DNA of 64,000 nucleotides. Source: an uncultured Acholeplasmatales bacterium. Its GTDB lineage: Bacteria; Bacillota_I; Bacilli_A; Acholeplasmatales; Anaeroplasmataceae. The notes under the pieces are model-generated. The model searched no databases. It was not told the DNA's origin and saw nothing but the letters and a program-made list of their open reading frames with translations. Of the stretch, positions 2,585 through 38,523 are shown piece after piece. Each line of letters opens with the position of its first letter. Position 1 is the first letter of the stretch. Location of the stretch: the NCBI GenBank assembly GCA_944324705.1, contig CALUXI010000005.1:7288-71287 (forward strand), read 5' to 3'. A program made the translations under genes and the position numbers.

Positions 2585-2640
2585 TATTTTCTTTAATAAT
2601 TATACATCTAATTAATGAATCTTTCTATATTCTTTTATAT

Positions 2641-3152
2641 TTACTTATCTAAATCTTTTTCAATAAAATGAATTTCACTCTCATTCCAATATTTATTGAA
2701 CACTTTATTATCAGTAACATTTAAATTCAAATAATATAACCTAAATGCAACTAAAAAATTCTTAGGCATCCGTCTTTCAAGATAAGAGTAACAATAATGC
2801 ATCCAAATTTCCAACATAACTTTTCCACTTTTGGGATTATTAATATCATGAGTAGCTGTTATATAGTTGATTTTTTTATTTTAAGTTTCAAAATAAAAGC
2901 TTTGGCTGCTTCTTGCATAATCCCCTTATGCCAATATTCACTTTTAAGGGCATAACCTAAGTCATGTGAATCATCACCATTCATATTAATGTAACCAATT
3001 GGAATATTATCTTCTTTAAGACATATTGCGTAATAATAACCTCCTCTTTGCCATTCAAATTCAATGTACTTTGTATAAAATTTTTCTACATCATCAATTG
3101 TTTTTAAAGGAAACCAAGGAAGGAAAGTATTCGTCTTTTCATCAAAGGGCAA
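2641..3152 (-). pseudogene. GNAT (RimJ/RimL-like) N-acetyltransferase, frameshifted and N-terminally truncated
   Basis: The ORF ends at ..AAKAFILKLKIKKSTI*. The GNAT sequence continues in another frame (INYITATHDINNPKSGKVML...) right after the A7/T7 run at 2871-2877. The usual N-terminal ~30 aa are missing. Confidence 0.6.
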
Positions 3153-3238
3153 ATTGGTAGATTTTTAACACCATACTCCTTTGCTAATTCCTCTTGATAT
3201 GTTGTTTTAAGGATAGTAATTTTACATTTATTCATCAT
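3104..3238 (-). pseudogene. short N-terminal fragment of an unrelated gene (TIGR04076-like, from memory)
   Basis: MMNKCKITILKTTYQEELAKEYGVKNLPICP..., then out-of-frame overlap with the GNAT remnant. The family call is recollection only. Confidence 0.3.
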
Positions 3239-3475
3239 AATCATTCACCCAACCTGACTATACTTAATAATAAAATAAAAAATATGAAAATTCAATGAAT
3301 AGGTTAAGAGATATAAAAAATGATACTTATTGAAGACTAAATTAATTGTTTCTATACACATAAAAAGAGTAATCTCAGCTTATGTATGCTTTATTGATTA
3401 CCCCTAATATTTCACAATATTTAGTTTTTTTGTTTATTATTTACTTAATACATTTTAATTATGTTAATAATAATA

Positions 3476-3730
3476 TTAATACCAATCATGTTTCTCATTT
3501 CTATCGAGTTTTGCAATTTTGTTCATTTCTTCCTCGGTTAAATTAAAATCGAATACCGAAATATTTTCCTTAATATGTTCAGGATTGTTTGAACCAGGAA
3601 TAGCAATTTTAGCAAACATTCTTTTGATGTTTTCTTGTTCAAAAAGAGAATTTCTCTCCATAAAAAAGCCTCCTAAAAATAGATTTTGAGAAACGCTTGC
3701 CTTCTTTCTCTTATTGACTATAAGGAGCAT
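3476..3730 (-). pseudogene. C-terminal remnant of an aldo/keto reductase
   Basis: The last ~40 aa (IPGSNNPEHIKENISVFDFNLTEEEMNKIAKLDRNEK) match the conserved AKR C-terminus. The catalytic body is absent. Confidence 0.55.
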
Positions 3731-4013
3731 ATATAGTTTTAAAGGAAATTAATTTTTATTTCTAGCTATTTTATCACTTTTAAGTATTTTTTATTCGAAT
3801 ATATTATTATACAATTTCATATACTATTACTTCTCAAATAGCTTATAAATTACTATTTAATTTAAACTTTCTTTTTATGTTTTTATAATTGTTAAAATTA
3901 AATTTAATCCAATTTTGTAAATATTAGGAAAAATTATCACAACAAAAAATAGTGGTTTACTCAGACATGATTTTGAATAATAACCAAGTTATGAGTAAAA
4001 GCGTAACAAAAAA

Positions 4014-4099
4014 TAACATTTTTTCTTATTCTGAGTAAATCAAAGAAACAAAAAAAGCCTTTAATAAGGCTGTAATTACAAAGTGGCGGAGCAGGAGGG
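4014..4099. repeat. attL: displaced copy of the tRNA-Ser 3' end plus its downstream terminator
   Basis: Identical to 38363-38448 except for 1 mismatch (G/A). Ends in TGGCGGAGCAGGAGGG, the last 16 nt of the tRNA including CCA. Confidence 0.85.
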
Positions 4100-4230
4100 T
4101 ATTACTCACATATAACTTTTAGCTTAGGTAACATAAAAAATGCCTATTTTCGTGAGTTAACTTAGCTTTTTAGGTATTTTTTGAGTATTTCTTAGATTGA
4201 CAAAGCATTTAAAAAAAGTATAATTATAGT

Positions 4231-4295
4231 AGAGAGAAATCTCGGTATAAGTGAGTTAAAAAAAGAAAAGGTTAGGGCTCAATCCTAACTTTTTT
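4231..4295 (+). ncRNA. candidate small RNA 1 (orphan paralog of sRNA 2)
   Basis: TTGACA (4197-4202), 16-nt spacer, TATAAT (4219-4224). No ORF. Terminator GTTAGG-loop-CCTAAC (4271-4289) plus T6. Shares AGTAGAGA, GTGAGTTAA and AAAAAGAAAA blocks with sRNA 2. Confidence 0.4.
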
Positions 4296-4334
4296 GCATA
4301 TTGACAAAAAATATTAATTAGGTATAATTTAAGT

Positions 4335-4418
4335 AGAGAAAGCCCATTGCTTGTCTCTAGCGTGTTAAGTTGCTAATCATTAAAAAGAAAACCCTAGGAT
4401 GGCTGTCCTAGGGTTTTC
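4335..4418 (+). ncRNA. candidate antitoxin small RNA 2, convergent with the 34-aa peptide gene
   Basis: TTGACA (4301-4306), 16-nt spacer, TATAAT (4323-4328). No ORF. Ends at hairpin CCCTAGGA/TCCTAGGG (4392-4413), which has U-runs on both strands. Confidence 0.5.
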
Positions 4419-4444
4419 ACTATTTTGGAGGCGTGTTAAGTTTG

Positions 4445-4549
4445 CTATTCTTCTTTTTGTTTAGAAGACTTGCTATTAGTAATTAAAGCTATTATGATCG
4501 GTAAAACCATAGCATATAGCCCCAATACCAATAAAACAAGATATTCCAT
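4445..4549 (-). CDS. 34-aa hydrophobic peptide, type I toxin-like (Fst/Ldr-like architecture)
   Basis: Below the ORF-track cutoff. ATG sits 10 nt after AAGGAG. Product is MEYLVLLVLGLYAMVLPIIIALITNSKSSKQKEE: one TM helix with a central Pro and a charged tail. Confidence 0.55.
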   Translation of the reverse strand: MEYLVLLVLGLYAMVLPIIIALITNSKSSKQKEE

Positions 4550-4631
4550 ATATAGGAAACTCCTTGTTAAAACATAACAACACCTGCAAAATAGCCTATG
4601 CTGTTATTCACATACAACGCCTCCGATACAT

Positions 4632-4660
4632 ATTATACTATAAACAACCTTTTAAAGTAA
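4632..4660 (-). promoter_or_regulatory. promoter of the peptide gene
   Basis: On the minus strand: TTACTT (4655-4660), 17-nt spacer, TATAAT (4632-4637), then a ~75-nt leader. Confidence 0.4.
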
Positions 4661-4693
4661 ATAAAAATAGGGCTAGCCGATTTGGCTAGCCTT
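4661..4693 (-). terminator. intrinsic terminator after the 307-aa gene
   Basis: GGCTAGCC-GATTT-GGCTAGCC hairpin overlapping the stop codon, followed by a T-run on the minus strand. Confidence 0.5.
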
Positions 4694-5596
4694 TTCAATA
4701 TTTGCACCTATCTTGCTATAGGTTTCTTTTATTATTTGTATACGCTCATCTAAAACGAATTTATAGTCATTAATAATAATTTTATTACCATTTCTAAATC
4801 CACTATATACTCCATTAGCTAAGGAAAAAGATAGTGTTAAAGCATTCATAATTGATTGAACTGTGTTAAAATTAGTTCCTATGTAAAAACAAGCTAAACA
4901 GTATGAAATAATTAAAGATATTATCATAAATGGTAAGTTATAGGAAAGATTAGTTTTAACTGCACTATAATAAATATTGTCAAAACTATCACCAGATTTA
5001 TTCTTATTATAATTTCTAAATACATCACTAGAAGTTAAATATTTTTGTTTAATCTTATCGATATCTAAAAATTTAAACTCTTTATCTGCATCATCATATT
5101 CTTTATATTTATTATTTTTAAGCAAGTTCTTTAATTCAATTACTTTCGTGGTATCTTCTTCTATCATTGTAAGATAATTAGCTATTCTAGGGCTTGCTGT
5201 TCTTTTTTGCCTTTTGAATTTATTGTATTTATACTTATACTGATTTAGTTTTAACAATGCTTTATCAAATCTTTTAAACTCACTCTCATAAAATAACACT
5301 TCATCAAATTTACTCATTTGATTTCTATTTAATATTTCACAGAATAAATTAACTATTGTTTTTTCACGTGTTGATATTTCATCGTTTAACATTGTTTTTT
5401 TACTAGAATATTGAGTAGATAAAACTTTAGCAAAAAAGCTGATACAGAAGTTAAGAATGAAAATATCATATTTGATTTTCGTAAATTCAAATTGAACGCT
5501 TAATAATTGAGTAAATAATACAATTGCTTCTAATGCTAGGACTTCAAGTATAAATATTATATCATCTTGATAATTCTTAATTTTATTTTTTATCAT
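4673..5596 (-). CDS. hypothetical membrane protein (307 aa)
   Basis: Hydrophobic helices at both ends and a Lys-rich middle. Located at the prophage end between the tail/lysis region and attL. Confidence 0.4.
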   Translation of the reverse strand: MIKNKIKNYQDDIIFILEVLALEAIVLFTQLLSVQFEFTKIKYDIFILNFCISFFAKVLSTQYSSKKTMLNDEISTREKTIVNLFCEILNRNQMSKFDEVLFYESEFKRFDKALLKLNQYKYKYNKFKRQKRTASPRIANYLTMIEEDTTKVIELKNLLKNNKYKEYDDADKEFKFLDIDKIKQKYLTSSDVFRNYNKNKSGDSFDNIYYSAVKTNLSYNLPFMIISLIISYCLACFYIGTNFNTVQSIMNALTLSFSLANGVYSGFRNGNKIIINDYKFVLDERIQIIKETYSKIGANIEKASQIG

Positions 5597-6063: not shown

Positions 6064-6071
6064 AGCCCCCT

Positions 6072-6695
6072 TTATAAGCTAATTTTAAGCCCATTTAAGC
6101 CCGTTTTATCTTCACTTGATAAATTATTAACATCATCAGTTTTTAAGCTATTTAGGGCAGTTTCTAGCCCCTCAACCTTAGTTTTAGTTTCCTCATTTCG
6201 TTTAATTTCTTCTTGTTCTTTTAATATGCGGTTATACTCGATATTTTTATTGTCTTCATTAACTTGATTAACTATATTTGTAGCTATAGTATTGTCAGCT
6301 TTTGGCAATTCTTTATACTTATTAGCTATCTTAACTATTTCATCATTTGAAAAGCCCATCTTGCTAGAAAGCATTAATAATAACTCGCTTATAATAGCAT
6401 TATCTTTACCATAAGTTGAGACTGTTTCTTTTGTCGCATCATTTGAATTATTTATTTTTTCTTCAAACTCTTTCATTAAACTCATAATATAATCATAGTT
6501 TTCTTTATTAGCCGTGTTAACACTATTAATTAAAGTCTTACTTTGTATTTTAGATTTAATTATAGTAATAATAGCCCCTATAATAGTTCCAGTTCCTATA
6601 GTGCCAACAATACCCAAAATCCAAGCTAGCCCCTCACTGCAATTTGTGGCTAAAGTTTTTAAAAACTCAGCAATGTTTACAGCTAAAAACATCAT
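6072..6695 (-). CDS. membrane-anchored coiled-coil protein (holin-like position)
   Basis: N-terminal TM (GIVGTIGTGTIIGAIITII), then a charged coiled-coil. Lies downstream of the tail fibre genes. Confidence 0.35.
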   Translation of the reverse strand: MMFLAVNIAEFLKTLATNCSEGLAWILGIVGTIGTGTIIGAIITIIKSKIQSKTLINSVNTANKENYDYIMSLMKEFEEKINNSNDATKETVSTYGKDNAIISELLLMLSSKMGFSNDEIVKIANKYKELPKADNTIATNIVNQVNEDNKNIEYNRILKEQEEIKRNEETKTKVEGLETALNSLKTDDVNNLSSEDKTGLNGLKISL

Positions 6696-6697
6696 TT

Positions 6698-6982
6698 TTA
6701 TAAGCCCCTTTCATTTATATTTTTAATTAAATCAATTAGTTTATTAAACTTAATCTTTAACTCATCATTTTCTTTTTTTAAGTCAGCGATATTACTTTCT
6801 AATAATTGAAAATAATCGCCTAGTGTAGTCCCTTTATTGAATCCTTTTTTTTCGGGTTCTACAATTTCTAAATTAAACAAATCTATATATTCGCTCTTTC
6901 TATATTTAGGGTCAACCATAACTAAAACCCCGTTTTTAAGCGGGGTCTTAAATATTTGTCTTTTATCATTTGTATTATACAT
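6698..6982 (-). CDS. hypothetical phage protein (94 aa)
   Basis: Compactly spaced ORF with a C-terminal coiled-coil. Confidence 0.35.
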   Translation of the reverse strand: MYNTNDKRQIFKTPLKNGVLVMVDPKYRKSEYIDLFNLEIVEPEKKGFNKGTTLGDYFQLLESNIADLKKENDELKIKFNKLIDLIKNINERGL

Positions 6983-6990
6983 AATAACTC

Positions 6991-7383
6991 CTATAAATAA
7001 TAAGCAATTTTAGGTGGTATAGCTTCTTTGGTATTTAAAGTTTGTGTATTTAAATCTAATAAATTTTTATACCATTCTAAAATAGCCTTATGTTCTTCTT
7101 CCGTTTCAGTAACTATACCATAAAGAACGTTTATTTTATAAACATCATACGCTTTTAATAAAGGTTCACGCAAAGAACGTAAGTAATTTAATTTATCTTC
7201 TTGTAAACGTGTTTTCAATTCGACACTTGTTTCTAAATGAACTACTTTACCATTAACAACGCTATATTCACAATTTAAAACATCACTAGGCAAATCATTT
7301 AATTCAAATTTTTCATTTTCATTAATTATTTCAGGTCTAATCCCAATAATTCTATCATAACGTTTTTTAAAATTAACTAACAT
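6991..7383 (-). CDS. hypothetical phage protein (130 aa), possibly a tail-fibre accessory protein
   Basis: Called only from its position immediately after the fibre genes. Confidence 0.3.
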   Translation of the reverse strand: MLVNFKKRYDRIIGIRPEIINENEKFELNDLPSDVLNCEYSVVNGKVVHLETSVELKTRLQEDKLNYLRSLREPLLKAYDVYKINVLYGIVTETEEEHKAILEWYKNLLDLNTQTLNTKEAIPPKIAYYL

Positions 7384-7398
7384 AATTTACCTCCAATT

Positions 7399-8307
7399 CT
7401 AAATCCATTTAGCACTTATAAAATTAAAATCTCTAATATATGCATTATCCAAAAGATAGGTATAGGTTGGCGTATCTATTACAATCTCATCAGTATCATA
7501 CGATAATAGACAATCGGCACTATCATCGTTTAAAGCATCTACGCCTGTTTTATAAAAAACTTTTAAGATTTTATTATTACGATATAAATTCCTAAATATT
7601 TCTACGCTTGTTATTAATGTATTTGTTAAAGTATAAATTACAAAATACGTATTATAACTGTTTTTTTGAAGCTTAACGGTTACTTCTTGAACAAATATAT
7701 TAGCGCCACCACTGCCAACTTTACTATTAACATATTCTTCGGTTGCCATTCTTACAAAATCGCCATTAGGTTCTGAACCATAACCATATCGAATATCTAA
7801 TTTTGGACCATTATCATCACTAACTTTTATTTGACATTCACTGCCACCATCAGTACCTTTTAAATTAAGCAACATATGGTTAAGACCACCATACGTGCTA
7901 GGTCTAACGCTACATTCACCCATATAGTTATCATCACTATCACTAACTTCTGATTGTTTTTTTAAATAATTGTTTAAATCATTAGTGCTAGCTATCGCAA
8001 CCCAACCTTGCCAAGTGCCACTTGAATTACCAACTGCATTACCAGTTCTTAAAAACATACGTGAGTCTTGATAAGGGAAACATAACTGGGCTATTGTATC
8101 ATCAGCACCCCTAACTACTAATAATTGTCCGAAAGAACCCGCTCCATCAGGTCCATTTGTAATAGAACTGTTATAGCGATACATTCCACCTTCAGTAACA
8201 TCATTAAAATTAGCATTTTCACCTAGCTTAGCCTTTTTAACAAACATTGACTTTATCTTATTCCATAATGTAGTAACTCCTGCTTTATCTAAAAATTGTT
8301 TAGCCAT
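7399..8307 (-). CDS. tail fibre / receptor-binding protein (paralog 2)
   Basis: N-terminus MAKQFLDKAGVTTLWNKIK is shared with the upstream gene. ATG at 8307 follows AGGTGA; the ORF-track start at 8325 is unlikely. Confidence 0.55.
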   Translation of the reverse strand: MAKQFLDKAGVTTLWNKIKSMFVKKAKLGENANFNDVTEGGMYRYNSSITNGPDGAGSFGQLLVVRGADDTIAQLCFPYQDSRMFLRTGNAVGNSSGTWQGWVAIASTNDLNNYLKKQSEVSDSDDNYMGECSVRPSTYGGLNHMLLNLKGTDGGSECQIKVSDDNGPKLDIRYGYGSEPNGDFVRMATEEYVNSKVGSGGANIFVQEVTVKLQKNSYNTYFVIYTLTNTLITSVEIFRNLYRNNKILKVFYKTGVDALNDDSADCLLSYDTDEIVIDTPTYTYLLDNAYIRDFNFISAKWI

Positions 8308-16411: not shown

Positions 16412-16933
16412 TTAAAGTTTTCTAAGGTCTTCATTGGTAAGCTCATCCACTTTTTTACCATTATAAGCCTCTATTTTAGGTGCTCCTTTTGGCTTATAAT
16501 CTTTTTCAACAACACTGAATAAGTCGTTATACTTTTCTTTAATGTCATTAAAATAAGCAGTTTCAAACTCTTTTTTGTCTTTATCGAACTTAGACCAATC
16601 TAGTCTATCAACAAGTAGTTCTGGATGCTTACAATTAAAACCTTTTAAGTAACCTATTTTGTTATTAGCTTCGGTTTCATTAACTAACTTTTGATACTTT
16701 TCTTTTAAATCATTGTAGTTAGTTAGTTCATCGATATAGTCGTTATTAGTTTTTTCAAGCTCAGTATATTTGTTTTTTAAAGTTTCATATTCTGCTTTAG
16801 CAACATATTTACTAGCTGTATCTTCTTTTAACAACTCGATATCATTGCCGTTTTCATTCATTATTTTGTTTAGCTTTTCATCAACCGATAAATTAGCATC
16901 ATCCAAAATAGATTTAATTACATCTCTTTTCAT
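16412..16933 (-). CDS. capsid scaffolding protein (putative)
   Basis: 173 aa, acidic and coiled-coil-rich, upstream of the capsid gene. Confidence 0.5.
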   Translation of the reverse strand: MKRDVIKSILDDANLSVDEKLNKIMNENGNDIELLKEDTASKYVAKAEYETLKNKYTELEKTNNDYIDELTNYNDLKEKYQKLVNETEANNKIGYLKGFNCKHPELLVDRLDWSKFDKDKKEFETAYFNDIKEKYNDLFSVVEKDYKPKGAPKIEAYNGKKVDELTNEDLRKL

Positions 16934-17355: not shown

Positions 17356-17460
17356 GATATGATTTGAGGTAGACAAATGCCGCCGTCTACGCTAGTTTGA
17401 GATGCTGGGACGATTATGGGCGTTAAGTCACATAACACGGCGGTCCAGCCAAATCATATC
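17356..17460 (-). ncRNA. ~105-nt GC-enriched structured element immediately after the MuF gene
   Basis: 11-bp closing stem GATATGATTTG/CAAATCATATC. Internal hairpins GCTGGAC/GTCCCAGC and GTAGAC/GTCTAC. CCGCC/GGCGG pseudoknot potential. Confidence 0.35.
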
Positions 17461-17465
17461 TTTTT

Positions 17466-19130
17466 TTATTTAATTTTTTTGAAATTTCTCTCTTTTATAA
17501 ACTCATCTAACTTTTTGTCCTTAATGCTCGTATATCTAAAAGACTTAATTCTATTTTCTGCATTTGACATAACTATTCCTATTTGCATATATCTTTCTTT
17601 TTTGCTTAATGGAATTAATAATGTTAAATTATTTTTACCATATTTTTCATCATTATCATTAACATATACATTTTCAGGATTATCTAATGCATTTTTAATT
17701 ACATTTATATAATTTGGAACTTTTTCTAAAATCTCAGGATGTCTATCTAATGCGTGAATAACATTATTTTCATCTTTAATTAATGTAAAGTGATTACTAA
17801 AAGATATTTTTTTATTTTTTCTATAATGTTTAGTCCAATTAAATTTTGCTTTGAATTTGAATACATACCTATCTTCATTTTGTTTTAGAACTATATTTTT
17901 ATTGTTTAATGAACCACGTTCATAAATATTGCCCATGTTTCTATCATTTGATTCAAAACTTATAGCCCCACTTTTAAGTCCCTCACGTTCTTCAAGGCTT
18001 ATACGTGTTCGCCACTCAGCAACAGCATAATCATGTTCTTTACAATACTGCCAATATTCTTTTTCTAAAGCTTGTGCATTTTGACGAGCTTTTTTTCTTT
18101 CTTCTTTATTAGGTAATATAAGAGCTTTTCTTTTTTCCTTACGGATGTTGTTTTCCATATTTCTAATATAAGTTTCCTTGCTACGTTCATTTTGAATTCG
18201 CCTAGCTGGGTATTCCCTTGGCATAGTCATACCTTTTTCGTAACGAACTAAATGATGTCGGCAGTTATAACCTAAAAAACCGTGTGACATTGCTTCTTTA
18301 AGTGAATAATAATCTTTACCATCTGGTGTTTTACCTCTAGGTTCTGGCTCACCATTATAGTGATTATCTTTTATCTCTACACTACCTACTTCAGCATCTA
18401 AAATAAATATTTTACCTTGCCAAGGTTGACATCTAGAACTTGCATTAACATGTGATGTAGCTACTACATATGTAACACCATTATTTTTTAGCTTTTTTAT
18501 ATCCTTTACTTGTTCCTCGTATCTAACTTGCATTTCGGCTAAATTTCTTACAGACATTCGTCTGCCACGCCTATCACGAAGAACTACATTTAATCCTGCT
18601 AGTCTTATTATTTCTTGATTAACTCTTTTTTGATAATCTTCAATAAACATTTGAGAATAGCCGGTTTCCCACGTTGTAAAAAAATCACGAATATTTTTTA
18701 CTGCTCCTTCTTCTAAATTGTCGCCTAATTCAATATCTCTACTATCTCTCATACCAGTTAAACCTAAACTAATAATTAAGCTTTTACCATTAGCTTTAGG
18801 CACAATACCTGTAATAGATTTATAGCTTAATGCATAATACGGATTTTTCTTTTTCTTTGCTTCGTTTAAGAGTTTAGCTGTTATATCATTATACCAACGC
18901 ATAAATGATCCTTTTAAACCTATTTCAGTTTTACTTATTAAACTAGAATCTGCATCGTGATCTTGAAGTTGCTTTATGCAATCATTAATGATTTGTCTAG
19001 CCTGATTGCCTATCATTTCTTTTTGAAGAATGCTTGTGACAGCAGTTGATAGTAGTTGCTTTAATTTGGTATTGGCATCTTCTATTATCTCTACAATTAC
19101 ATAATCATCATTGTTGTCATTAACTGGCAT
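17466..19130 (-). CDS. MuF/SPP1 gp7-family head morphogenesis protein with a C-terminal extension
   Basis: 554 aa with the FLGYNCRHHL motif. Start is coupled to the portal stop (TAATG). About 150 extra C-terminal aa. Confidence 0.65.
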   Translation of the reverse strand: MPVNDNNDDYVIVEIIEDANTKLKQLLSTAVTSILQKEMIGNQARQIINDCIKQLQDHDADSSLISKTEIGLKGSFMRWYNDITAKLLNEAKKKKNPYYALSYKSITGIVPKANGKSLIISLGLTGMRDSRDIELGDNLEEGAVKNIRDFFTTWETGYSQMFIEDYQKRVNQEIIRLAGLNVVLRDRRGRRMSVRNLAEMQVRYEEQVKDIKKLKNNGVTYVVATSHVNASSRCQPWQGKIFILDAEVGSVEIKDNHYNGEPEPRGKTPDGKDYYSLKEAMSHGFLGYNCRHHLVRYEKGMTMPREYPARRIQNERSKETYIRNMENNIRKEKRKALILPNKEERKKARQNAQALEKEYWQYCKEHDYAVAEWRTRISLEEREGLKSGAISFESNDRNMGNIYERGSLNNKNIVLKQNEDRYVFKFKAKFNWTKHYRKNKKISFSNHFTLIKDENNVIHALDRHPEILEKVPNYINVIKNALDNPENVYVNDNDEKYGKNNLTLLIPLSKKERYMQIGIVMSNAENRIKSFRYTSIKDKKLDEFIKERNFKKIK

Positions 19131-36957: not shown

Positions 36958-37158
36958 ATGATTAAAGAAAACAACATTTTAAATTTATTAATTAAAAATT
37001 TAAAGACTGGTGATGAACTAGCCGAGTATTTAGGGCTAACATTAAAGGAAACCGAGGACTATATTTTAATGCGTAAATTTTTACCTTGGCAAATTGCTTT
37101 TCTTTGCTCTAAATTTTTTAATGTAAACCCCGAAGAGGTTATTTATGCCAGCATATAA
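36958..37158 (+). CDS. small HTH protein (excisionase/regulator candidate)
   Basis: 66 aa; overlaps the integrase start. Confidence 0.35.
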   Translation: MIKENNILNLLIKNLKTGDELAEYLGLTLKETEDYILMRKFLPWQIAFLCSKFFNVNPEEVIYASI

Positions 37159-38257
37159 ATACACAGATTCAAAAGGCAAAAAACGCTGGTATTTTCAAGG
37201 AATGTATAAAGGGGTCCATTATTGCCGGAGGGTTTGGCAAGGTAAGCCAATGCTTACTAAAATTGAAGCTGTTAATGCTGAATATTACTATTTAGCTCAA
37301 CTCAATTATAAAGAGGCTAATACACCATTAACACAAACTTTCCTATTTGAACTTTGGGATGAATACGTATCTACTAAAGTAGTCAAAGATACTACTAAAA
37401 GGCGATTTGACATTTTTAAGAAAAATTACTTATTACCTATAGGCAACGTTAGACTTGATACTATAACAGTTCAAATGTTACTTCAATGGCGTAAAAAACT
37501 AGAAAAGAAAAGCATAGTTACTTCTTCTAAAAATAAAATATTACAATTTATGCGAAGCTTAATTCAATATGGAATTGATGCATATCAAATGTCTAGCAAA
37601 CTTATAGTGGTATTACGAGAACCATTTAAAGATTACTCAATAAAGAAACATGAAAGTAAACAAGTAATATATACAGATGATGAGTTTAATAAATTTATTA
37701 AAACTTTTGAAAATGATTATATGAGCCAAAATTATAAATTACTTTTTTGCTTGCTTTATTATACAGGATTAAGAATAAGTGAACTAATGGCGTTACGGTT
37801 TAATGATTATAAATTTGATGGTAAAATTCACGTGTATAGGCAGTGGCAAGTAATAGATCGTGTCGGTCAATTTACAAGTTTAAAAACAGATAACAGCAAC
37901 CGCATTGTTACTTTAGATGATCTCACTAGAAAACAACTTGAAGATTTTATAGAACTTACTAAAAAAATAATTAAAGACTTTAAAAAAGACTGGTTCTTTT
38001 TCTTTGGTGATAAGCCAATAAACGAACAAAAGATACGGCGTATTTGTAAAGAACATAGTGATATAGCTAAATTACCACATATTAAATTACATGGTTTTAG
38101 ACATAGCCACGCCACTTATTTACGTAATATGGGATATGATGAATGGACCATAAGTCAAAGATTAGGTAATGATCCAACAACTGCCTCAAAAACTTATATT
38201 CACGCATCTAGTAAAGATGATGAGGAAGTTGCTAAAGCTATAAAAAGAAAAACCTAG
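37145..38257 (+). CDS. int: tyrosine integrase
   Basis: GLRISELMALR, HGFRHSHATYL and KTYIH catalytic-motif pattern; adjacent to attR and the tRNA. Confidence 0.85.
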   Translation: MPAYKYTDSKGKKRWYFQGMYKGVHYCRRVWQGKPMLTKIEAVNAEYYYLAQLNYKEANTPLTQTFLFELWDEYVSTKVVKDTTKRRFDIFKKNYLLPIGNVRLDTITVQMLLQWRKKLEKKSIVTSSKNKILQFMRSLIQYGIDAYQMSSKLIVVLREPFKDYSIKKHESKQVIYTDDEFNKFIKTFENDYMSQNYKLLFCLLYYTGLRISELMALRFNDYKFDGKIHVYRQWQVIDRVGQFTSLKTDNSNRIVTLDDLTRKQLEDFIELTKKIIKDFKKDWFFFFGDKPINEQKIRRICKEHSDIAKLPHIKLHGFRHSHATYLRNMGYDEWTISQRLGNDPTTASKTYIHASSKDDEEVAKAIKRKT

Positions 38258-38362: not shown

Positions 38363-38448
38363 TAACATTTTTTCTTATTCTGAGTAAATCAAAAAAACAA
38401 AAAAAGCCTTTAATAAGGCTGTAATTACAAAGTGGCGGAGCAGGAGGG
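38363..38448. repeat. attR: repeat overlapping the 3' end of the intact tRNA-Ser
   Basis: 85 of 86 nt identical to 4014-4099. Confidence 0.85.
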
Positions 38449-38523
38449 ATTCGAACCCTCGCACCAGTTACCCGGTCTACTTCCTTAGCAGGGAAGCCTC
38501 TTGAGCCTCTTGAGTACTGCTCC
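38433..38523 (-). tRNA. tRNA-Ser (anticodon GCT), class II with a long variable arm
   Basis: Acceptor GGAGCAG/CTGCTCC, anticodon stem CTTCC/GGAAG with loop CTGCTAA, T-arm GAGGG-TTCGAAT-CCCTC, encoded CCA. Confidence 0.9.

Follow-up and report, generated by a model that had tools for sequence, protein, structure and literature searches.

The 64,000-nucleotide stretch of contig CALUXI010000005.1 from an uncultured Acholeplasmatales bacterium (positions 7,288 to 71,287 of the forward strand; hereafter the window, AT-rich in base composition) carries near one end of a prophage a small cassette in which a gene for a putative 34-residue membrane peptide and a gene for a predicted non-coding small RNA (sRNA) converge on a common terminator. 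We interpret this cassette, with a probability of about 0.7, as an accessory module that a temperate phage carries at its integrase-distal end, type I toxin-antitoxin-like and used for addiction or exclusion. Judged from its sequence, the module joins the layout of par to a fold-back of the hok/aapA kind and places its target site at the 3′ end. A type I toxin-antitoxin-like unit had already been proposed in an initial annotation of this DNA, and the proposal is now supported by conservation, purifying selection, co-variation of the repeats, a fold-back of the toxin mRNA and an asymmetric decay of the two genes. Toxicity, transcription, the direction of regulation and the nuclease involved are what we infer from this anatomy. 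The elements of the cassette are the following.

4301–4328, plus strand: antitoxin sRNA promoter, TTGACA-16-TATAAT, 12/12 match.
4335–4424, plus strand: predicted antitoxin sRNA of about 90 nt, with a 5′ stem-loop (4336–4357), a central R1 segment and the terminator.
4360–4375, plus strand: R1, the trans-pairing repeat in the sRNA, GCGUGUUAAGUUGCUA.
4387–4418 (core 4392–4413), both strands: bidirectional intrinsic terminator common to the sRNA and the toxin mRNA.
4419–4447, minus strand: hub in the 3′ untranslated region (3′UTR) of the toxin mRNA, with R2′ (4431–4447, the complement of R1) and an anti-Shine-Dalgarno (anti-SD)-like element, ACGCCUCC (4427–4434).
4445–4549, minus strand: putative toxin open reading frame (ORF), 34 aa, MEYLVLLVLGLYAMVLPIIIALITNSKSSKQKEE.
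4560–4565 (reverse complement), minus strand: SD sequence AAGGAG, 10 nt before the ATG.
4569–4596, minus strand: R3, an SD-proximal 5′UTR element, GGCUAUUUUGCAGGUGUUGUUAUGUUUU, which can pair with 4419–4444 of its own mRNA.
4617–4624, minus strand: 5′-terminal fold-back element, GGAGGCGU, pairing with ACGCCUCC at 4427–4434.
4661..4632, minus strand: toxin promoter, TTTACT-18-TATAAT or equivalently TTACTT-17-TATAAT, weaker than the sRNA promoter.

The two genes were recovered as they had first been described. Perfect TTGACA-N16-18-TATAAT promoters occur twice in the 64 kb (at 4197 and 4301), against 0.23 expected, and the plus-strand unit behind the second one holds no ORF, as initially read. 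Its predicted 90-nt transcript folds at −33.4 kcal/mol (z = −5.4 relative to shuffled sequences), and the 5′ stem-loop explains the conserved ...GTAGAGA that follows the −10 box. The hairpin with U-runs on both strands that had been proposed to end the two transcripts lies about 55 nt from the predicted sRNA start, on its downstream side, and a terminator scan scored it for either strand, T-runs included. Because the sRNA and the toxin mRNA share this bidirectional terminator, their 3′ ends should be complementary over about 35–44 nt, which bears out the overlap of about 35 nt suggested earlier; cofolding of the two RNAs gives a 44-bp cis intermolecular duplex (ddG −35 kcal/mol). On the minus strand, the 34-aa ORF with its proline-containing transmembrane (TM) helix, the AAGGAG ribosome-binding site (RBS) and the TTACTT-17-TATAAT promoter all stand, the predicted leader measuring about 76 nt (about 75 nt in the initial annotation); the terminator of the neighbouring gene at 4661–4693, taken as the upstream border, is likewise present in the terminator scan. 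The peptide is a single hydrophobic helix with Pro, followed by a Lys/Ser/Glu tail. Its predicted mRNA of 245 nt (4625 to 4381, minus strand) folds at −87.5 kcal/mol, compared with −51.7 ± 4.2 kcal/mol in shuffled sequences (z = −8.5). The cassette has two generic marks of a type I system, namely a hydrophobic peptide gene of less than 60 aa with its own promoter and RBS, and an adjacent non-coding RNA gene predicted to be complementary to the toxin mRNA.

Relatives were sought in a genome collection by using the promoter and 5′-stem signature, which gave eight matches, six of them real loci in four metagenome-assembled genomes (MAGs) of uncultured bacteria; L010 and L011, from candidate-phyla-radiation MAGs, were chance matches. 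Further prophage ends were gathered via homologues of the 307-aa neighbour of the cassette. We counted 27 distinct sRNA units, 21 of which have an intact peptide ORF of 26–36 aa on the opposite strand. All cassettes are located at the same prophage end or beside the attachment (att) site, often in tandem (up to three), and their hosts are related uncultured-bacterium assemblies, one of them labelled Acholeplasmatales. The identical 34-aa peptide is encoded on five other contigs. Two of these represent the same strain, and two others, L002 and L004, are 91–94% identical and have a second complete cassette at the place where the window has an orphan sRNA unit. Conservation among related prophages, on which the initial annotation had made its proposal depend, extends to the ORF, both promoters, the terminator and the repeat geometry. 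The same sRNA promoter signature is found at every cassette, and all 18 sRNAs that were folded (70–98 nt) consist of a 5′ stem-loop, a central R1 segment and a strong terminator. On the toxin strand, TATAAT lies 73–105 nt upstream of the AUG in all cassettes but one, a deletion variant. Terminator stems show compensatory changes at five pairs among relatives. In type C, the terminators of L007 and L008 have the same stems as those of L009 and L073 and a 7-nt loop that is the exact reverse complement (ctaccaa vs ttggtag), apparently after an inversion of the hairpin or an exchange of the module between strands.

The peptides share one plan across types: ME(Y/L/T)L, 14–22 hydrophobic residues, and a polar or charged tail.

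Type A (window): MEYLVLLVLGLYAMVLPIIIALITNSKSSKQKEE
Type A′: MEYLVLLAIILYIIVLPIIVILANKQSSKEKEE
Type A2: ...ITRGKSSKDKEDL
Type A3: ...SNRKDKED
Type B: MELAYLCIIFFTILVVVYGHNDKDDK
Type C: MEYLIILVVILYIIWLSGNDDDHNNKS
Type D: MEYLVILAVILYIIYLGGNGKDKDNK
Type E (ATA start): ETLALLAIIFFIIYLASKSKDDNNKK

Between the window and L074, the peptide genes show a synonymous difference (pS) of 0.47 and a non-synonymous difference (pN) of 0.03. Most type-A pairs fall at pS 0.24–0.62 and pN 0.03–0.08, pN rising up to 0.30 with L071, the most divergent variant, and type-C pairs fall at pS 0.15–0.29 and pN 0.00–0.07. Synonymous differences being far in excess of non-synonymous ones, the ORF is a real gene under purifying selection. 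The first codons (AUG GAA UAU CUU) can also pair with the SD or spacer in several types, at 4550–4580 (minus strand) in the window and at equivalent positions elsewhere, for example as AGGUAUUC/GAAUAUCU in type C; such a local start-site hairpin may add to the conservation of the MEYL N-terminus.

The initial annotation had noted that the repeat at 4360–4375 recurs at 4431–4447 across the stop codon of the peptide gene. R2′ indeed includes the TAG stop, and the repeat goes well beyond shuffled sequences: none of 5000 shuffles reached the R1/R2 alignment score and none of 2000 the stability of the R1:R2′ duplex (−24.6 kcal/mol). R1 and R2 are present in all 11 cassettes analysed, with R2 just past the terminator, in the toxin 3′UTR. 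Five unrelated R sequences were found among these 11 cassettes, and a sixth and a seventh were read in types A2 and A3. The sequences, which differ completely from type to type, are GCGTGTTAAGTTGCTA, GGCGTTGCTAATGATTA, GAGGTTGGAAGTTATA, GGAGGTCTTGTTGTTAA, GAGGTTGTGCTTA, ACGAAGTTTTATTTAAAAGGTTAATGA and GGCG(T/A)(T)GTTATCGTTAT. In spite of these differences, R1 and R2 are matched within every cassette, and the matrix of predicted sRNA × mRNA duplexes is block-diagonal, cognate pairs ranging from −22 to −29 kcal/mol and non-cognate pairs lying mostly between −8 and −15 kcal/mol, typically near −12, a few of them reaching −21 kcal/mol.

Direct repeats around an inverted repeat resemble the footprint of an insertion, and the region borders att; the repeats and hairpin could then be structural debris that has no role as RNA, such as a target-site duplication on either side of a palindromic insert or att-arm sequences, and the ORF would be fortuitous. 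The repeats are, however, 13–30 nt long, type-specific and matched within each cassette while the rest diverges, and their length, diversity and coordinated change lead us to reject an origin by target-site duplication. Together with the strong purifying selection on the ORF and the promoters, SD and terminator kept in 21 cassettes, this makes the debris explanation very improbable.

The toxin mRNA is also predicted to pair with itself. The fold-back of 4617–4624 on 4427–4434, which the initial annotation had described as a hok-like arrangement, is part of the minimum free energy (MFE) structure of the predicted mRNA, and a 5′UTR-3′UTR helix of 10–25 bp appears in the MFE structure of all 17 full-length toxin mRNAs that were folded. 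The two strands of this helix are as follows.

Type A: 5′ GGAGGCGU, 3′ ACGCCUCC
Type B: 5′ AUGGAGGUU, 3′ AACCUCCAU
Type C: 5′ AUUUUGUGGAGG, 3′ CCUCCACAAAAU
Type E: 5′ GGAGGUUUUAUGAAGU, 3′ ACUUCGUAAAAUCUCU

A compensatory change is seen in L081, where GGAGGCGA pairs with UCGCCUCC in place of GGAGGCGU with ACGCCUCC in the window. R3, a longer partner which the initial annotation had missed, can form a second duplex with the 3′ hub (−23.9 kcal/mol, z = −5.1 in the window). Every cassette has an equivalent within −48..−3; these equivalents are located at −48..−15 in types A and C and extend to the SD in types B, D and E; their duplexes range from −21 to −32 kcal/mol (z from −3 to −5) and co-vary with R2. 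At the RNA level, one motif has the same orientation in the sRNA and at two places in the toxin 5′UTR of each cassette, and the 3′UTR contains its complement once; the predicted partner of the hub is either R1 of the sRNA or the 5′UTR of the mRNA itself. R3 and R1 share their sense, so that R3 and the sRNA are competitors for this hub.

Decay of the cassettes is asymmetric. Six of the 27 sRNA units lack a toxin, and the sRNA promoter accompanies every intact toxin ORF. The toxin −10 box is deleted in L073, where the sRNA is kept; the toxin is frameshifted in L078; ATA replaces the ATG start of type E in two MAGs; and a deletion in the type-B cassette of L079 removed the 3′ half of the terminator, R2 and the toxin stop codon. 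L008 (CASFCK010000004.1, oriented ~6064–7400) has three tandem cassettes, of types E, C and A, downstream of the C-terminus of a tyrosine recombinase, and the third toxin ORF is broken by an insertion beginning with the hairpin ccacccgttcaacgggtgg. This insertion appears to be of the IS200/IS605 type, judged by eye from its terminal hairpin and an adjacent reverse-strand ORF; chromosomal hok copies inactivated by insertion sequences provide a parallel (PMC6733600). In L073, L074 and L076, and in L081 and L082, a degenerate unit between the type-C and type-A cassettes joins an sRNA-type promoter to what is left of a toxin ORF in antisense orientation (…GGAATACCTTGTCATATTAGCGG…), with the terminator of the window's orphan unit behind it, a structure which suggests that orphan sRNAs arise by deletion or by recombination between cassettes. 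A harmful peptide and a protective RNA would be expected to leave this pattern, in which the toxin is lost and the sRNA retained.

The same loci bear on another reading, in which the peptide would be a regulated phage membrane protein (for superinfection exclusion, modulation of lysis or holin, or lysogenic conversion) whose level is tuned by the antisense RNA. The cassette comes at the prophage end after tail-fibre and membrane-protein genes without known function, a classic moron or lysis neighbourhood, some peptide tails are acidic, and the cassette is missing from one related phage. A structural or lysis function would, however, hardly account for up to three units in tandem with mutually exclusive RNA specificities, nor for orphan sRNAs and for peptide genes that were inactivated several times independently while the sRNA was kept; both patterns are typical of toxin genes. 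In L085, moreover, the cassette persists beside a truncated phage gene. We consider a simple membrane-protein function unlikely.

Several observations weigh against the toxin-antitoxin reading. In L083 and L084 (Logan SRR7685273 and DRR279221), which represent a more distantly related prophage, the gene of the 298-aa neighbour (71% identity) is followed directly by the att/tRNA fragment, and a cassette is absent; the module is therefore accessory and dispensable. No homology to a known toxin or antitoxin family was found in Rfam, Pfam or NCBIfam. The tails of types B–D are short and acidic or neutral (for example ...GNDDDHNNKS), less typical than Lys-rich ones. The ends of the sRNA and of the toxin mRNA are predicted from promoter and terminator motifs. 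In the MFE structure of the cofolded RNAs, the cis overlap alone is formed and R1 is left unused, because the fold-back occupies R2′; of the second pairing site proposed in the initial annotation, the complementarity of the repeats thus holds, through cognate duplexes and co-variation, and its use is not seen in the cofold MFE. SD accessibility was modelled in three states (full length, 3′ region blocked, truncated). Blocking the 3′ region raises the probability that the SD is unpaired from 0.40 to 0.52 in the window cassette and from 0.10–0.28 to 0.46–0.58 in types B and E. This is the opposite of simple translational repression, so that repression would have to proceed via decay, or else the sRNA would have to act on a processed form. 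Sequestration of the SD by the fold-back is not claimed, the modelled changes being small and giving no clear switch.

These accessibility values could instead suggest that the sRNA is an activator which mimics the 5′UTR elements, displaces the fold-back and turns on translation of the peptide. R1 does have the same sense as the 5′UTR elements and competes for the same 3′ hub, and the 3′ block raises predicted SD accessibility in most cassettes. With a perfect-consensus and presumably constitutive sRNA promoter, however, expression of the peptide would be permanent; the sRNA is retained where the peptide gene has been lost, and no cassette shows the opposite loss; a perfect overlap of 35–44 nt would produce a long double-stranded RNA, which is degraded in characterised Gram-positive systems (PMC3834814); and the accessibility changes are small and model-dependent. 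An activating role therefore appears quite improbable.

If the cassette is a type I toxin-antitoxin module, it probably operates as follows. The weak promoter would give a strongly structured mRNA, about 245 nt long, that encodes the 34-aa membrane peptide, the presumed toxin. From the perfect-consensus promoter would come, in excess, the non-coding RNA of about 90 nt that is transcribed convergently and is presumed to be the antitoxin. As in hok and aapA, the fold-back would give the full-length mRNA a compact form that is stable and little translated, the 3′ element closing the molecule with two 5′UTR elements, one at the 5′ terminus and one beside the SD. The sRNA would bind the 3′ region of the mRNA, with first contact probably made by the complementary terminator loops or by single-stranded R1; as R1 has the same sense as the 5′UTR elements, binding at R2′ must displace the fold-back. 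The long duplex would then be cut or degraded (by RNase III, as in Bacillus), and no toxin would be made while the prophage is present. Upon loss of the element or of the sRNA supply, the stable mRNA would be translated and the peptide would damage the membrane.

The par locus of pAD1 from Enterococcus faecalis is similar in layout, with convergent toxin and sRNA genes, a common bidirectional terminator, and direct DNA repeats that are read from opposite strands and provide a second, separate pairing region (PMC8167048). Fst resembles the present peptides in its length (about 33 aa), its TM helix (with Pro in type A) and its charged tail. In par, however, the repeats lie at the 5′ ends, over the fst translation start, whereas the target here is the toxin 3′UTR with the stop codon, R1 being in the 5′ half of the sRNA and R2 between the ORF and the terminator; the window peptide family also has no detectable homology to Fst. 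The analogy with the par/Fst direct repeats drawn in the initial annotation therefore holds for the layout, and fails for the position of the repeats at the translation start and for membership in the Fst family. Same-sense 5′UTR copies that fold back on the target are, to our knowledge, not part of the description of par.

Prophage-borne type I systems that overlap at their 3′ ends and work by mRNA decay and a change of structure are established in B. subtilis and C. difficile (PMC3834814, PMC6563280). The Bacillus subtilis prophage systems bsrG/SR4, txpA/RatA and yonT/SR6 and those of C. difficile prophages resemble the cassette in being carried by prophages, in having a convergent sRNA over the toxin mRNA's 3′ end and a small TM peptide whose C-terminus is charged, and in occurring as several modules per prophage (PMC6563280). 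SR4 triggers RNase III-dependent decay of bsrG mRNA and also alters the structure at the RBS remotely (PMC3834814). The overlap in the present cassettes differs from that of SR4 (more than 100 nt) in covering the terminator only, about 35–44 nt, and a discrete trans repeat is added; there is no sequence similarity to the Bacillus or C. difficile systems, the peptides are shorter (26–36 aa), and the host lineage is uncultured and Acholeplasmatales-labelled.

Silencing of toxin mRNAs by long-distance 5′-3′ interactions is established for hok and aapA (PMC6733600). As in hok/sok of plasmid R1 and aapA/IsoA of Helicobacter pylori, the mRNA here would be made compact and very stable at full length by a 5′-3′ fold-back via a 3′ anti-SD-like element (in silico in our case), alternative 5′ partners suggest a folding pathway, and insertion elements inactivate chromosomal copies (PMC6733600). 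In those systems, however, it is the 5′ region that the antisense RNA recognises, and binding takes place only after 3′ processing, whereas the sRNA of the cassette is complementary to the 3′ end of the mRNA only and targets the fold-back element itself. No homology to Hok or AapA was detected, and a mok-like leader ORF was not conserved among cassettes. The hok-like arrangement stands as far as the fold-back is concerned, and does not extend to the Hok family, a mok frame or a 5′ antisense RNA. The Ibs/Sib loci of E. coli also have very small hydrophobic peptides, multiple copies and type-specific antisense RNAs, but Sib spans the whole ibs ORF, which the present sRNA does not.

Database searches likewise gave no known family. 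Seven peptides of the family compared with Pfam and NCBIfam at E ≤ 10 matched no curated toxin family, including Fst, Hok and TxpA/BsrG/BsrE/YonT; the sole matches were sub-threshold, to unrelated TM-like models (for example YxzE, E = 0.037). A phmmer search of 1.84 billion representatives returned one sibling toxin and one repeat-protein artefact and nothing else. No match was found when the cassette DNA was compared with GenBank phages by distant blastn, by tblastn of the peptide against phages and plasmids, or in IMG/VR with either the promoter and 5′-stem pattern or the 307-aa neighbour, and a relaxed pattern gave 55 loci in JGI metagenomes, all unrelated strong promoters with no cassette among them. 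SIB_RNA (RF00113) is the sole Rfam family with any score on the cassette; membership was rejected at 30.1 bits against a gathering threshold of 56, the best-aligned parts being the promoter hexamers and the terminator. On these sequence comparisons, the cassette is a new family, outside par, hok, Ibs and TxpA/BsrG.

New type I families turn up regularly. Such systems are known from only a few phyla (PMC12390103), and the present family was recognised from raw sequence anatomy, being unmatched in Pfam, NCBIfam, Rfam, PHROGs, PADLOC and the phage, plasmid and IMG/VR collections searched. The target of the putative antitoxin doubles as the fold-back element of the toxin mRNA, which links par-type and hok-type logic, and natural variants supply co-variation that would otherwise need mutagenesis, marking the nucleotides of both the sRNA-mRNA and the intra-mRNA pairing. 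One might go further and see in the family at least six orthogonal RNA "locks", each a motif of about 17 nt written four times per cassette, in which the antitoxin strand-displaces the fold-back instead of covering the ribosome site, and which prophages shuffle as modules, keeping orphan antitoxins for anti-addiction or cross-immunity towards one another's toxins; we regard this extended scheme as speculative and rather doubtful. If true, it would amount to an RNA-based barcode for prophage competition in an uncultured Acholeplasmatales-like lineage. The mutually orthogonal RNA pairs could serve as regulatory parts, and the family would aid the annotation of prophages in uncultured, probably Acholeplasmatales-related bacteria, a lineage hardly explored.

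The surroundings of the cassette in the window include the following features.

4046–4099 and 38395–38448: att core repeat, 54 bp, exact, made of the tRNA-Ser 3′ end and a downstream hairpin.
4197–4297, plus strand: orphan sRNA unit without toxin ORF, with a perfect TTGACA-16-TATAAT promoter at 4197–4224.

The att repeats bound a prophage of about 34 kb (~4.1–38.4 kb). The tRNA-Ser(gct) gene at 38433–38523 overlaps one att copy and is intact at the integrase side, and the integrase (37145–38257; PHROG integrase match, E = 1.9e-53) lies beside it. With the integrase at the opposite end of the prophage, the cassette is integrase-distal, and it is the last prophage feature at that end (attR in the lambda convention); the "attL end" of the initial annotation is a mislabel if attL denotes the integrase-proximal end. 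The neighbouring genes (307, 155 and 207 aa) had no match in Pfam, PHROGs or PADLOC.

The orphan unit, also absent from the initial annotation, has a 5′ stem-loop (AGAGA-GAAA-UCUC) and a terminator hairpin at 4271–4289 followed by T6; full type-C cassettes in L009 and L002 are homologous to its 5′ part. For its segment 4244–4260, neither the window nor the fetched loci yielded a complementary target beyond chance.

In L071 (ena:ERZ16268236 scaffold_2639, 4649–5369), a HicB-like gene and an ORF judged HicA-like by eye lie just outside att, next to the type-A′ cassette, placing type II and type I modules side by side. Inside the window prophage, between the ORFs at 16412–16933 and 17466–19130, a skipping-rope RNA (RF02924) matches at 17359–17457 on the plus strand (40.3 bits, Rfam gathering threshold 36.7). 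In the bacterial flank by att (2600–3750, minus strand), a 97-aa GNAT fragment (2859–3152) and an 84-aa C-terminal fragment of an aldo/keto reductase (3476–3730) were found, and a weak Fic/DOC-like ORF lies at 1847–2584; genes seem to be decaying in this stretch beside the integration site.

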